NCBI RefSeq assembly: GCF_053078305.1
Contig: NZ_CP166875.1
Reading direction: 5' to 3' (one strand)
Source of the DNA: a plasmid
Length of the DNA stretch: 64,000 nt
Shown in pieces: positions 4,917 through 18,595 of this stretch. Below the pieces are notes generated by a model. The model was given only the letters and a program-made list of their open reading frames with translations. It was not told the DNA's origin and searched no databases. Both the position numbers and the translations under genes were made by a program. Position 1 is the first letter of the stretch. Every line of letters starts with the position of its first letter.

Positions 4917-5123
4917 ATGAAGTACTTGAACACTACTGATTGTAGCCTCTTCCTTGCAGAGAGGTCAAAGTTTATGACGAAATATGCCCTTATCGGGTTG
5001 CTCGCCGTGTGCGCCACGGTGTTGTGTTTTTCACTGATATTCAGGGAACGGTTATGTGAGCTGAATATTCACAGGGGAAATACAGTGGTGCAGGTAACTC
5101 TGGCCTACGAAGCACGGAAGTAA
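4917..5123 (+). CDS. srnB: Hok/Gef-family type I toxin (SrnB-like) with in-frame leader
   Basis: MKYLNTTDCSLFLAERSKFMTKYALIGLLAVCATVLCFSLIFRERLCELNIHRGNTVVQVTLAYEARK; hydrophobic hok-type core; adjacent to the IncFII replicon as srnB is in F. Confidence 0.7.
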   Translation: MKYLNTTDCSLFLAERSKFMTKYALIGLLAVCATVLCFSLIFRERLCELNIHRGNTVVQVTLAYEARK

Positions 5124-5406
5124 GCTGCCGGGCGGGGACGGAAGTCCCCGCTTTCCGGAAGTGTGAGGTATTTCAGGGGCAGACACCCGACATGCCAGAA
5201 ACCGCCGGTCCCGCCCGGGGCCGGCACACAGGTTAAGGCATTTCCTGTTTTTCAGCCATTTCGCAACAAAAATCACATTAAACAACAGTAATCACCGTTG
5301 ATTTGTGCGCCAACACAGATCTTCGTCACAATTCTCAAGTCGCTGATTTCAAAAAACTGTAGTATCCTCTGCGAAACGATCCCTGTTTGAGAATTGAGGA
5401 GGCGAG

Positions 5407-5667
5407 ATGTCGCAGACAGAAAATGCAGTGACTTCCTCATTGAGTCAAAAGCGGTTTGTGCGCAGAGGTAAGCCTATGACTGACTCTGAGAAACAAATGG
5501 CCGCTGTTGCAAGAAAACGTCTTACACACAAAGAGATAAAAGTTTTTGTCAAAAATCCTCTGAAAGATCTCATGGTTGAGTACTGCGAGAGAGAGGGGAT
5601 AACACAGGCTCAGTTCGTTGAGAAAATCATCAAAGATGAACTGCAGAGACTGGATATACTAAAGTAA
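5407..5667 (+). CDS. repA2: RepA2/CopB copy-number repressor
   Basis: 86 aa [47 protein letters not shown]..., matches recalled R100/R1 CopB. Confidence 0.9.
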
Positions 5668-5744
5668 AGACTTTACTTTGTGGCGTAGCATGCTAGATTA
5701 CTGATCGTTTAAGGAATTTTGTGGCTGGCCACGCCATAAGGTGG

Positions 5745-5840
5745 CAGGGAACTGGTTCTGATGTGGATGTACAGGAGCCAGAAAAGTGAAAACCCCGATA
5801 ATCTTCTTTAACTTTGGCGAGTGAGAAAGATTACCGGGGC
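5745..5840 (-). ncRNA. copA: CopA-type antisense RNA against the repA leader (approximate)
   Basis: Leader between repA2 and tap matches recalled IncFII CopT region (GGTGGCAGGGAACTGGTTCTGATGTGGAT...TACCGGGGCC); boundaries not determinable by eye. Confidence 0.4.
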
Positions 5841-5891
5841 CATCTAAAAACCGTATAGCCAACAATTCAGCTATGCGGGGAGTATAGTTAT

Positions 5892-5966
5892 ATGCCCGGA
5901 AAAGTTCAAGACTTCTTTCTGTGCTCGCTCCTTCTGCGCATTGTAAGTGCAGGATGGTGTGACTGA
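5892..5966 (+). CDS. tap: repA leader peptide Tap (RepA6), translationally coupled to repA1
   Basis: 24-codon [27 protein letters not shown] ending TGA that overlaps the GTG start of repA1. Confidence 0.6.
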
Positions 5967-6816
5967 TCTTCAACAAACGTATTACCGCCAGGTAAAGAAC
6001 CCGAATCCGGTGTTTACACCCCGTAAAGGTGCCGGAACGCTGAAGTTCTGCGAAAAACTGATGGAAAAGGCGGTGGGCTTCACCTCCCGTTTTGATTTCG
6101 CCATTCATGTGGCGCATGCCCGTTCGCGTGGTCTGCGTCGACGCATGCCACCGGTGCTGCGTCGACGGGCTATTGATGCGCTGCTGCAGGGGCTGTGTTT
6201 CCATTATGACCCGCTGGCCAACCGCGTCCAGTGTTCCATTACCACACTGGCCATTGAGTGCGGACTGGCGACAGAGTCCGGTGCAGGAAAACTCTCCATC
6301 ACCCGGGCCACCCGGGCCCTGACGTTCCTGTCAGAGCTGGGACTGATTACCTACCAGACGGAATATGATCCGCTTATCGGGTGCTACATTCCGACCGATA
6401 TCACGTTCACACCGGCGCTGTTTGCCGCCCTTGATGTGTCTGAGGATGCAGTGGCAGCTGCGCGCCGCAGCCGTGTGGTATGGGAAAACAGACAGCGCAA
6501 AAAGCAGGGGCTGGATACCCTGGGTATGGATGAGCTGATAGCGAAAGCCTGGCGTTTTGTCCGTGAGCGTTTCCGCAGTTACCAGACAGAGCTTAAGTCC
6601 CACGGCATGAAACGTGCCCGTGCGCGCCGCGATGCAGGCAGAACCCGCCAGGACATTGTCACCCTGGTGAAACGGCAGCTGACGCGTGAAATCGCGGAAG
6701 GGCGTTTCCGGGGAAGCCTGGAGGCCGTGAAGCGCGAAATCGACCGTCGTGTGAAGGAACGCATGATAATGTCGCGTAACAACAACTACACACGGCTGGC
6801 CACTGCCTCCCCCTGA
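5959..6816 (+). CDS. repA1: RepA1 replication initiator (IncFII/RepFIIA)
   Basis: [41 protein letters not shown]...RLATASP; GTG start at 5959. Confidence 0.92.
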
Positions 6817-6849
6817 GTTTTACCTCATCTGAATAATCCGGCCTGCGCC

Positions 6850-16003: not shown

Positions 16004-16004
16004 T

Positions 16005-16712
16005 TTATGTCCTCAACATCATGGCTTTTTGGATAACCTTATCAGAAAAATCATCAATGTCATCCGGGTGAGCACATACCATAATCCGCTCACGAAGGTG
16101 TAACGGAAGATTATCAGTAAAATGTTGATATTCCGCATGCCATCCTGTGATCCATTTTATCTTCATTTCCTCATCTGGAAATTCTTCAGGCCGTACACCA
16201 TGAATTTCATCATCATTGAGATGCATGAGTGAATGTGCGATGGGATAATTAATGAATGCTATAATGTCTGGCTCTGTAAGTAATTCATTTATTCTACTCC
16301 AGAGCACCATGTATGCATCATATTGTGCTTTATTTATATATTCGGACTTCAGCATGAAGTTGATAAAAATATAATCCTCAATATGGGATCTCTCCATAAT
16401 AAGGTTAAACCCTTTATCCAGCCAAGATTTTATCAGTAATGCCCGTTGTATCATAAAATTAAGCTGGATTAGATAACCGTAGTTACTGGTATCGTCAAAA
16501 AGGTAAGGAAGGAGAGTGTGGTGGACACTTTTTTCATCTATCGCGACAGTGTCTGGATCTACCTTAAATAACTCCTTTGACATGCGTCTCAGAAGAGTAC
16601 TTTTACCTACACCGGAATTACCCGACAGACATATATACAGAGGATTTCGAGTTTTATTCTTCTCTTTTTTATCTGCTGACCAAGGATCCATATACAAGTA
16701 ATTATATCTCAT
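16005..16712 (-). CDS. P-loop kinase, deoxynucleoside-kinase-like
   Basis: Walker [15 protein letters not shown] motif ([11 protein letters not shown]); start taken at ATG overlapping upstream stop (ATGA); ORF track extends to 16739. Confidence 0.7.
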
Positions 16713-17575
16713 ACTGTAAACTCCATTTTGTCCAACCAAAAGCGGTTGTTCTTACATTTTTGCATGATTTCATTATTTCCGAAAATTGCACTGATTATAT
16801 GATCTTGTGAATCTGTCAGCATATTTCCCAACAGAGTATAGTTTTCTCCATCAGGGATAATAATGTCAAAATTGGGTTCCATAACAACATTGGCTTTGTC
16901 CCGTTCTTCGAAAGTTGCCCAACTAATGGGCATGTTAGGGTGTTGTTTTTTTAGCATTACCATTTTCTCTTTAAATATATCCGTATTGATTTCCAGTTTA
17001 TCTCTTTTTTCTTTTCCGACTCCTAGAGGACAGAACTGGTAAAATCGCCAAGCTTGGATCTTATAGGGCAGAGAATCAACCCAGCAAACAATATCACTGA
17101 GATGATTAATGTTAGACTGAGATACGACGGTCGTGAGTTTTATATTAATTCGATTATTATTTTGGGGTAACCATGTTAATATATTTTTGATAACCCTGTG
17201 TTGGTTACTCATTTTATCACTGCGAATTTCTGAATTGACAAGACTGTCAATTCCATCAATTGGTATTCCTACCCAGTCTAACACCGGATTTAACCGAGCA
17301 TGATCCATAATAAATCGATGCCCGACCGTGGAGAGATATGTCATAAAACCCAGTTGCTTAGCGTATTCAATCAGATCAATGAAATCACTCCGGGATGTAG
17401 GTTCCCCTCCGGTAAAACCGATACGACGGAATCCCATTTTATACATCCGCTCAATTACATTACGAGCACTAGCAAGAGAAGAGTCCTGAATTCCAGGTGT
17501 ACGAAAACACTGATCACATCCTAGGTTACAATGTGAAGTTATTCTGAAATCTAAAAGAAGGGTGCTAATATCCAT
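16709..17575 (-). CDS. radical SAM enzyme, viperin-like
   Basis: CNLGCDQC (CxxxCxxC), GFTGGEP, and C-terminal WRFYQFCPLG resembling viperin WKVFQCL region. Confidence 0.75.
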   Translation of the reverse strand: MDISTLLLDFRITSHCNLGCDQCFRTPGIQDSSLASARNVIERMYKMGFRRIGFTGGEPTSRSDFIDLIEYAKQLGFMTYLSTVGHRFIMDHARLNPVLDWVGIPIDGIDSLVNSEIRSDKMSNQHRVIKNILTWLPQNNNRINIKLTTVVSQSNINHLSDIVCWVDSLPYKIQAWRFYQFCPLGVGKEKRDKLEINTDIFKEKMVMLKKQHPNMPISWATFEERDKANVVMEPNFDIIIPDGENYTLLGNMLTDSQDHIISAIFGNNEIMQKCKNNRFWLDKMEFTV

Positions 17576-17869
17576 AACAAGTCCTCTGACTATGATACAT
17601 CAATAACCATTAAAACATAATGGTTATTGCAGACCATGACAAAGCGCAACCTTCGGCTTACCAGGGATATAATATCTGCCAGTAATCAGAGCAGTGGGTT
17701 GCGCAAGGAACTCATGAATGATGAGTTCCGGTAATCGCATTACTGGAAGCCCATGATCGGAGGGACGCTATCAGTCACACCAGTGAAAATTGTGCACAGA
17801 AGCATTTTCATCACTGACAGGCCGTATGCCTCACAAGACGGGAGATAACTGGAGAATATTTAGTTCTTC

Positions 17870-17946
17870 TACCGGCTTACGCCGATTTTACTCCTGTGTT
17901 ATATGTAACCACTGTGTGCCACCTTCCATGCGCTGGTGCGGCATCA
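17870..17946. repeat. partial copy (3' ~80 bp) of the ~270-bp repeat family
   Basis: TACCGGCTTACGCC...ATGTAACCAC...GCCACCTTCCATGCGCTGGTGCGGCAT matches ends of copies A/B. Confidence 0.7.
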
Positions 17947-18059
17947 GAGTAAAAAATCAGCATTAAATTTATTTGCAAATGTATGAGTAATACAGACTTG
18001 TTAACGGGTCCTTTCAGATGTATCTTTAAGACTTATTAAACAGTCTTAAAAGGTGCATT

Positions 18060-18311
18060 ATGCCTAACATCATTCTGTCTGACATCAGTGCAAGTGTCAG
18101 TGAACTGAAAAAAAATCCGATGGCGACAGTCGGTGCTGGTGATGGTTATCCGGTCGCCATTCTGAATCGCAATCAGCCGGCATTCTACTGTGTTCCTGCT
18201 GAACTGTATGAAAGGATGCTTGATGCTCTGGATGACCAGGAGCTGGTGAAACTGGTTACTGAACGTAGCAGTCAACCTCTGCATGATGTTGACCTGGACA
18301 GTTATTCATGA
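18060..18311 (+). CDS. stbD: StbD/RelB/Phd-family antitoxin
   Basis: 83 aa MPNIILSDISASVSELKKNPMATVG...; overlaps toxin start. Confidence 0.7.
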   Translation: MPNIILSDISASVSELKKNPMATVGAGDGYPVAILNRNQPAFYCVPAELYERMLDALDDQELVKLVTERSSQPLHDVDLDSYS

Positions 18312-18595
18312 CTTATACGATAAAATTCAGGGATGATGCGCTTAAAGAATGGCTGAAACTGGATAAGACCATTCAACAACAGTTTGTGAAAAAACTAAAA
18401 AAATGTAGCAAAAATCCTCATATACTGTCTGCAAAACTACGTGGGCTAAAGGACTGCTACAAAATTAAACTTCGTGCATCGGGATTTCGTCTGGTTTATC
18501 AGGTGATTGATGATATGTTAATTATTGCGGTTGTTGCGGTAGGTAAACGAGAACGTAGTAACGTTTATTATCTCGCCAGTGAGAGAATGAGATAG
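18308..18595 (+). CDS. stbE: StbE/RelE-family toxin
   Basis: 95 aa MTYTIKFRDDALKEWLKLDKTIQQQFVKKLKK... Confidence 0.75.
   Translation: MTYTIKFRDDALKEWLKLDKTIQQQFVKKLKKCSKNPHILSAKLRGLKDCYKIKLRASGFRLVYQVIDDMLIIAVVAVGKRERSNVYYLASERMR

Follow-up and report, generated by a model that had tools for sequence, protein, structure and literature searches.

Intact and decayed toxin–antitoxin modules around the replicon of a mosaic IncFII-type F-like plasmid of E. coli

The window analysed here, 64,000 nucleotides of plasmid contig NZ_CP166875.1 (RefSeq assembly GCF_053078305.1), carries a cluster of toxin–antitoxin (TA) loci around an IncFII replicon. The cluster is real and ordinary: it is an IncF maintenance region that is widespread and whose genes were all catalogued before. 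Very probably, a mosaic E. coli plasmid of the F-like, IncFII type here displays its standard maintenance region, with five intact post-segregational-killing modules, namely a srnB-type hok/sok locus, a Gp49/helix-turn-helix (HTH) pair, a FitB-like PIN-domain VapC toxin and its Phd-type antitoxin, stbDE, and a hok/mok/sok locus in the leading region. Two further modules have decayed: a ribbon-helix-helix (RHH)/ParE pair whose toxin has lost its 3' end (ParE'), and yacAB, of which a 19-codon yacA stub is left. All TA loci named in the original prediction for this DNA were found where it had placed them, nearly all of them above curated profile thresholds (the StbD hits lie below), and profile searches bore out its family assignments. 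The loci are listed here with strands in brackets; TIME-A, TIME-B, TIME-C, D1 and gene X are labels coined in this analysis.

4828-5123 (+): srnB-type hok/sok module, with a mok-like open reading frame (ORF) at 4917-5123, a 49-residue Hok at 4974-5123 and the sok/regulatory region at 4828-4984
7752-8081 (+): Gp49-family (HigB-like, RelE-superfamily) toxin of 109 residues, first in its operon (PF05973, E 7e-23)
8062-8343 (+): Xre/HTH antitoxin of 93 residues, overlapping the toxin gene by 20 nt (HTH_3, E 1.7e-13; HTH_37, E 8e-8)
8532-8810 (+): ParD-like RHH antitoxin, intact (RHH_1, E 1.1e-10; RefSeq start 8526)
8810-9085 (+): ParE/RelE-family toxin gene with replaced 3' end (ParE'), native to 9036, with TIME-A supplying the stop and the 15 codons before it
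9269-9667 (+): D1 copy 2 (9269-9532), then the promoter region of yacA and its codons 1-19 (9611-9667)
9876-10292 (-): VapC, a PIN-domain toxin of 138 residues with a GTG start (PIN, E 2.7e-13)
10292-10546 (-): Phd/YefM-type VapC antitoxin of 84 residues, its stop overlapping the vapC start (PhdYeFM_antitox, E 2.7e-9)
18060-18311 (+): StbD, a Phd/YafN-type antitoxin of 83 residues
18308-18595 (+): StbE/RelE toxin of 95 residues, with a 4-nt overlap with stbD
54116-54446 (+): leading-region hok/mok/sok, with the sok region at 54116-54287, mok at 54227-54442 and hok at 54285-54446

Both type I loci display the complete Hok/Sok architecture, that is a Hok/Gef peptide, an overlapping mok-type frame and a sok region covering the start of that frame. 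Pfam HOK_GEF matched the srnB-type Hok (4974-5123) with E 5e-9 and the leading-region Hok (54285-54446) with E 2.2e-16, while Rfam RF01794 recovered the respective sok regions with 94.6 bits (4828-4984) and 95.2 bits, both above the gathering score. The hok/sok system of R1 as well as srnB/srnC and flm of F likewise combine a Hok of ~50 residues with an overlapping mok-type frame and a conserved sok region, and the window loci show no notable difference from these systems. One locus adjoins the replicon and the other follows psiA in the leading region, an arrangement known from F-like plasmids; the hok-type loci of the F plasmid itself occupy corresponding positions.

In the Gp49/HTH pair, the toxin gene lies upstream of the Xre-HTH antitoxin gene within one operon. 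The toxin-first order, the overlap of the genes and the combination of a RelE-superfamily toxin with an Xre antitoxin are shared with HigBA-type (Gp49 plus HTH_37/Xre) modules. To HigB of known structure, the toxin shows only remote similarity (PDB 6af3, E 2.7e-5), and the pair sits outside any transposon, whereas this pairing has been described inside Tn3-family transposons (PMC7157771).

VapC combines a PIN domain carrying acidic residues with an overlapping antitoxin gene upstream. It aligned over its full length with Neisseria FitB (PDB 2h1o, E 5e-16), with D5 and D104 opposite acidic residues; E45 and D125 were read straight from the query sequence. The NCBIfam model for tRNA(fMet)-specific VapC gave 37.5 bits against a cut-off of 140. 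The full-length toxin alignment and the overlapping antitoxin and toxin genes are thus common to this pair and to FitAB of Neisseria gonorrhoeae and VapBC, and the antitoxin in the window is of the Phd/YefM type. FitA belongs to the RHH type, and vagCD/mvpAT of the classic IncF surveys has an AbrB-type antitoxin.

StbE scored 36.4 bits with the NCBIfam model TIGR02385 RelE_StbE (cut-off 27.9) and gave an ungapped alignment with RelE of E. coli (E 4.7e-29), in which the equivalents of RelE K52, K54, R61, R81 and Y87 are conserved at five of five positions. Its antitoxin gene lies upstream, with overlapping stop and start. The module therefore shares with RelBE of E. coli K-12 and with StbDE an ungapped RelE-type toxin that keeps the catalytic positions, but differs from RelBE in having a Phd/YafN-class antitoxin in place of RelB. 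This class is taken from sub-threshold profile matches (PhdYeFM_antitox, E 6.8e-5 and 23 bits, under the 29.8-bit cut-off; NCBIfam YafN, E 5.8e-10, under the curated cut-off), and the RefSeq name of StbD is Phd/YefM.

Identity to RefSeq proteins was found for the replicon-proximal Hok (49/49 residues, WP_001312851.1), the Gp49 toxin (109/109, WP_000493283.1), the HTH antitoxin (93/93, WP_000780223.1), the RHH antitoxin (WP_024166087.1), VapB (84/84, WP_000705662.1), StbD (83/83, WP_001563268.1) and StbE (95/95, WP_001563269.1), and VapC is one residue off (137/138, WP_000275620.1).

The two decayed modules, in turn, were broken at junctions with short Tn3-derived elements, which are listed here together with the direct repeat D1 and without strands.

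7387-7650: D1 copy 1, a 264-nt direct repeat downstream of repA, 95% identical to copy 2 (repeat search)
9035-9268: TIME-A, a 234-bp Tn3-derived inverted-repeat miniature element with terminal inverted repeats and no target duplication
9667-9856: TIME-B, a 190-bp Tn3-derived miniature element with 38-bp inverted repeats (29/38 identical), truncating yacA at codon 19
15300-15502: TIME-C, a mosaic Tn3-type miniature element whose first 121 nt are an inverted copy of the right part of TIME-B (97% complementary)

The RHH/ParE' pair retains a ParDE-type arrangement, with the antitoxin gene directly upstream of the toxin gene and one base shared between them. ParDE and RelE-ParE modules with an RHH antitoxin have the same upstream antitoxin, whose stop overlaps the start of a toxin of ~90 residues; ParE' differs from their toxins by the loss of the last 15 native residues and by its weak relatedness to solved structures. 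Upstream of the toxin, the antitoxin is complete and its upstream DNA is 99.5% identical to a plasmid with an intact module. Across the toxin gene, plasmids with the intact allele match the window DNA at 99.5% as far as base 9036, where the match breaks off. The atypical C-terminus that the original prediction had remarked on is therefore a breakpoint, the homology ending at the left inverted repeat of TIME-A. Where the common allele ends in ...YELNGQTIYVLRLWHTRENR, the window protein ends in ...YELNGLRLGNVQYCTVALLR, and its Pfam ParE_toxin match falls to 45 bits over profile positions 1-71 of 89, compared to 63 bits over 1-88 of 89 for the common intact allele. A full-length ParE/RelE fold including the C-terminal strand and the basic tail is thus absent from ParE'.

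Copies of TIME-A with 100% identity stand as separate units elsewhere in other plasmids (365 records with a match), and the element agrees with TIME, the Tn3-derived inverted-repeat miniature element, as defined in the literature (PMC4133298). Since no target duplication flanks it and the remainder of parE is missing, the junction points to recombination or an adjacent deletion and not to a simple insertion. Because ParE toxicity has been reported to lie in the C-terminal part, and C-terminal truncation to lower it (PMC6813445), and because the catalytic residues of RelE-type relatives are likewise C-terminal (RelE alignment), ParE' is probably dead as a toxin, whichever its target.

In yacAB, the loss is more extensive: 70 of the 89 antitoxin codons and the whole of yacB are deleted. 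The ORF at 9611-9703 starts with MAQVNMSLRIDAELKDAFM, the first 19 YacA residues, and a tblastn search with YacAB from a related plasmid placed YacA residues 1-22 at 9611-9676, recovering the yacA stub alone and no YacB in the window. The segment 9269-9668 is 96% identical to pEA13_1 1654-2053, where an intact yacA-yacB is followed by a 288-bp TIME, of which TIME-B is a 190-bp version. An RHH gene truncated by an inverted repeat, as had been predicted, is indeed present, the repeat starting at 9667 and leaving 19 of 89 YacA codons. YacAB, an NCBI-named RelE/ParE-type module, follows repA in many IncF and IncK plasmids, and the window shares with it the promoter-proximal DNA, the first 19 codons and the position; unlike the complete YacAB, its yacA is a vestige, not a module. 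The location of D1 copy 2 at 9269-9532 indicates that a replicon-proximal piece of another plasmid was joined on at TIME-A. The two D1 copies bracket the Gp49/HTH and RHH/ParE' pairs as well as TIME-A, and homologous recombination between them would remove both modules in one step.

The breakpoints at TIME-A and TIME-B give substance, for ParE' and yacAB, to the earlier remark that some modules may be decaying. At the RHH/ParE locus, toxin-first decay is recurrent. In four draft E. coli contigs (L029-L032, gene 3001-3216), the same toxin is cut to 71 residues by an IS21-family element and the RHH antitoxin is intact; IS21-type disruption of the toxin with an intact antitoxin was seen in 195 collection blocks and is independent of the TIME-A event. 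We infer that such asymmetric, toxin-first decay is to be expected, because loss of the toxin is harmless and loss of the antitoxin lethal.

The plasmid context of these modules is that of F-like IncFII plasmids of E. coli, of which the window is the non-transfer part. It comprises finO, a nuclease gene, srnB-type hok, copB, CopA RNA, tap and repA1, followed by colicin B/M genes, parMR, the leading region (ssb, psiBA, hok) and oriT-traM-traJ. The replicon was identified by Pfam RepB-RCR_reg (E 6e-45), Rfam CopA (98.9 bits) and the annotation of NZ_CP129254.1.

5407-6816 (+): IncFII basic replicon, with copB/repA2 at 5407-5667, CopA RNA at 5784-5874 (-), tap at 5892-5966 and repA1 at 5959-6816

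Six of the seven TA loci fall within 13.7 of the 64 kb, for which a scan statistic under a naive uniform null gives P ~0.011; this value overstates the surprise, because five of the loci sit in one inherited syntenic block and are not independent. Many draft E. coli assemblies show 99% collinearity with that block (window 3341-11068), and it holds srnB, the replicon, Gp49/HTH, ParD/ParE', TIME-A, the yacA stub, TIME-B, vapCB and most of gene X, which amounts to three intact modules and both decayed ones. In surveys of eight classic TA systems by polymerase chain reaction (PCR), IncF plasmids carried a mean of 2.54 systems, with a range of 0-5 per plasmid (PMC4585273), and the mean was 1.9 in a second study (PMC3701463). 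The complete 108-kb relative p_STEC1585_2 has six annotated modules (two hok, Gp49/HTH, RHH/ParE, Phd/VapC and Phd/Doc). Set against this relative, the collinear drafts and the published range, the characterisation of the arsenal as "unusually dense" does not stand. Among collection blocks, the ParE' allele was found in 1044 and the intact allele in 5658, and plasmids of E. coli and Salmonella commonly carry the intact RHH/ParE module.

The clustering reflects the classic TA slot beside the IncFII replicon together with junctions at Tn3-family elements. Both kis-kid (parD) of R1 and pemIK of R100 lie immediately downstream of the IncFII basic replicon. In the window, the Gp49/HTH and RHH/ParE' pairs use this slot; pemIK itself was not found in the window, and in the related plasmid pFHI_NMBU_11_02 it is annotated beside the partition genes (parM), not the replicon. 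Elsewhere, the position after repA is taken by RHH/ParE alone, by yacAB or by RelB/DinJ-RelE, depending on the plasmid, and in one more plasmid stbDE adjoins a RepA4 remnant. Four elements or termini of the Tn3 family stand between the modules of the window, and normal target duplications are absent from all of them. In the same line, TIME-A, TIME-B and TIME-C (190-234 bp) all lie at segment junctions and all lack a target duplication. TIME-C joins the vapCB/gene X segment to a viperin-kinase-Nudix operon and stbDE, and pFHI_NMBU_11_02 has a related short element at the same junction. Related TIME copies differ by internal deletion and swapped ends, measuring 288 bp in pEA13_1 and ~140 bp in pFHI_NMBU_11_02.

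The operon beyond TIME-C raises another reading of the region, in which the TA modules and the operon form a defence island serving mainly abortive infection or other anti-phage functions, not addiction.

15578-17575 (-): pVip-dNK-Nudix operon (PADLOC pVip 'associated with kinases', E 1.6e-30; PDC-S07, E 5e-17)

Its viperin is a radical SAM protein with a CNLGCDQC motif and matches to PDB viperins, and its partners are a dNK-family kinase and a NudI-like Nudix protein; the RefSeq name of the viperin is merely 'radical SAM protein'. Judged by these matches, the operon is likely an anti-phage system on an IncF plasmid. It lies 0.5 kb from stbDE, both travel together in pFHI_NMBU_11_02, the HTH antitoxin of the Gp49 pair matches the PADLOC models HTH_VI and CapH, and recent papers ascribe defence roles to many TA systems. 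However, the PADLOC scan returned no model for VapC or StbE (nor for gene X or DUF2251), and most modules are where F-like plasmids classically have them, near the replicon or in the leading region. A defence role is moreover compatible with addiction and does not exclude it; as the main function of the region, we consider it unlikely.

The RHH/ParE' pair invites a second alternative, namely that the ParD-like antitoxin has been kept as an anti-addiction gene that shields the host from killing upon loss or displacement of a competing plasmid with an intact ParDE-like module. Next to the broken toxin, neither the antitoxin nor the DNA upstream of it has changed, the broken allele persists in its 1044 blocks, the IS21 disruption independently spares the antitoxin, and the abundance of the intact module (5658 blocks) makes encounters likely. 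Yet hitch-hiking on a successful plasmid lineage can account for the persistence, the copies are ~99% identical and thus offer no power to detect selection, and toxin-first decay is the neutral expectation. We therefore regard selective retention as decidedly unlikely, and as more unlikely still the compound proposal that the toxin-dead ParD/ParE' is a selected anti-addiction device against competing IncF plasmids and that the block and the viperin operon together make up a combined plasmid-competition and phage-defence island. An orphan-antitoxin role as such is a plausible hypothesis for the intact ParD-like RHH gene with its broken partner toxin. The original prediction had suggested that an orphan antitoxin could neutralise a toxin elsewhere in the cell, which is impossible for the truncated gene it had flagged, in which 19 of 89 YacA codons, all N-terminal, are left. 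In the YacA class of antitoxins, the toxin-binding region is C-terminal; the 19-residue yacA stub cannot form an RHH dimer and, with this part lost, cannot neutralise any toxin.

Given the Tn3-family sequences between the modules, the TA pairs might also be passenger or regulatory modules of Tn3-family transposons (Lima-Mendez et al. 2020) and not part of the plasmid backbone. The segment beyond vapBC contains the only complete transposon of the cluster.

10706-15214 (+): gene X, hypothetical, 155 residues when intact, divergent from vapBC, split by the transposon and not a TA component
11069-14968: Tn3-family transposon of 3.9 kb, with tnpR (-), tnpA at 11864-14902 and inverted repeats identical at 31/38 positions (Pfam Resolvase, E 5e-38)

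Gp49-HTH_37, ParE-ParD and PIN-Phd pairings have all been reported in Tn3-family transposons (PMC7157771), and the modules are interspersed with four termini or elements of this family. In the window, however, no pair is inside an intact transposon next to tnpR/res, all pairs lie outside the inverted-repeat pairs, the sole complete transposon carries tnpR and tnpA only, and the miniature elements, which lack target duplications, interrupt or abut modules and do not enclose them. On position, the passenger reading was rejected, and we hold it to be highly improbable.

The transposon is flanked by a 126-bp direct target duplication (10943-11068 and 14969-15094, one mismatch) instead of one of 5 bp, and in NZ_CP129254.1, where the site is empty, the 126-bp segment is present once. 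The duplication most likely arose when two insertions, made independently and 126 bp apart, recombined with each other. A third position of this transposon next to gene X, equivalent to window 10805, is seen in pFHI_NMBU_11_01. Gene X matched no Pfam, PHROG or PADLOC family. It is bracketed by two copies of a perfect 34-bp palindrome, ATTAATGCTAATGTATGCATACATTAGCATTAAT, at 10660-10693 and 15242-15275; none is expected by chance, and its DNA hairpin has a z-score of -4.7.

An artefact of chance ORFs or chimeric assembly has next to no probability and was rejected: the source is apparently a rearranged or cointegrate plasmid, with a second leading-region fragment abutting at base 3339 and the odd 126-bp duplication around the transposon, but all ORFs score above curated thresholds or have strong matches and equal RefSeq proteins, window 3339-20292 is 100% identical to JPQG01000009, a contig of an E. 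coli draft genome, and the left transposon junction recurs at 99.7% identity in an independent assembly.

The second leading-region fragment occupies window 1-3338 (-) and contains an ssb-like ORF (810-1337) and a putative antirestriction-like ORF (2695-3339), assigned by eye from the translation; its presence suggests a rearranged or cointegrate plasmid. The finO-proximal block meets it at base 3339, which is also where homology to JPQG01000009 and to other assemblies starts. Elsewhere in the window, AS-pc02, an antisense RNA described from plasmid pHK01, has an Rfam match of 61.6 bits at 3428-3570 (-), and an ORF of 132 residues at 4296-4694 is without a Pfam or PHROG family, PADLOC giving only a weak orphan-methyltransferase match (E 0.006). 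A 3.8-kb insertion relative to pFHI_NMBU_11_02 (28608-32395) has ORFs of 210 and 988 residues, whose size and order fit a second tnpR-tnpA Tn3-family unit. Searches for further TA systems were negative: tblastn found no match in the window to PemIK, Phd-Doc or RelB/DinJ-RelE (queries from related plasmids) or to a CcdAB query, and annotation transfer from close relatives added no TA system in the rest of the window.

Several points weigh against reading the region as a standard maintenance region with functional killing modules. We infer all module activities from family membership. The ParE/RelE-family toxin, whose target may be gyrase or mRNA, has weak PDB matches (E ~0.002), and its replacement C-terminus, which has the original length and is partly hydrophobic, may leave ParE' some residual activity. 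The ParE'-TIME-A junction was found in no complete PLSDB record, so that its abundance rests on draft assemblies, and neither collection has a record that spans 80% of the stretch used as query.

Under the maintenance reading, plasmid loss would first deplete the unstable antitoxin or, at the type I loci, the Sok antisense RNA, which Hok mRNA outlives, and the stable toxin would be freed. The membrane would then be the target of Hok, ribosome-bound mRNA that of the RelE and HigB-like toxins, and RNA that of VapC. Several modules with different targets would provide redundancy as well as protection against displacement by related plasmids. The slot directly downstream of the IncFII origin is habitually used by TA modules, and junctions at Tn3-family ends have brought the vapBC and pVip-stbDE segments alongside. 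TIME-A replaced the last 15 toxin codons and left the RHH antitoxin intact, and TIME-B removed yacAB except for 19 codons of yacA.

Overall, this case documents, with exact breakpoints, how Tn3-derived miniature elements shuffle and inactivate TA modules on F-like plasmids. For annotation, it is useful to note that the 91-residue protein named "RelE/ParE family toxin" in the database is a truncated fusion. The documented decay removes the toxin first and offers a small case study for anti-addiction ideas; little else changes. If the compound proposal were true, the orphan antitoxin would immunise the hosts of a widespread lineage against killing by competing IncF plasmids with an intact module.

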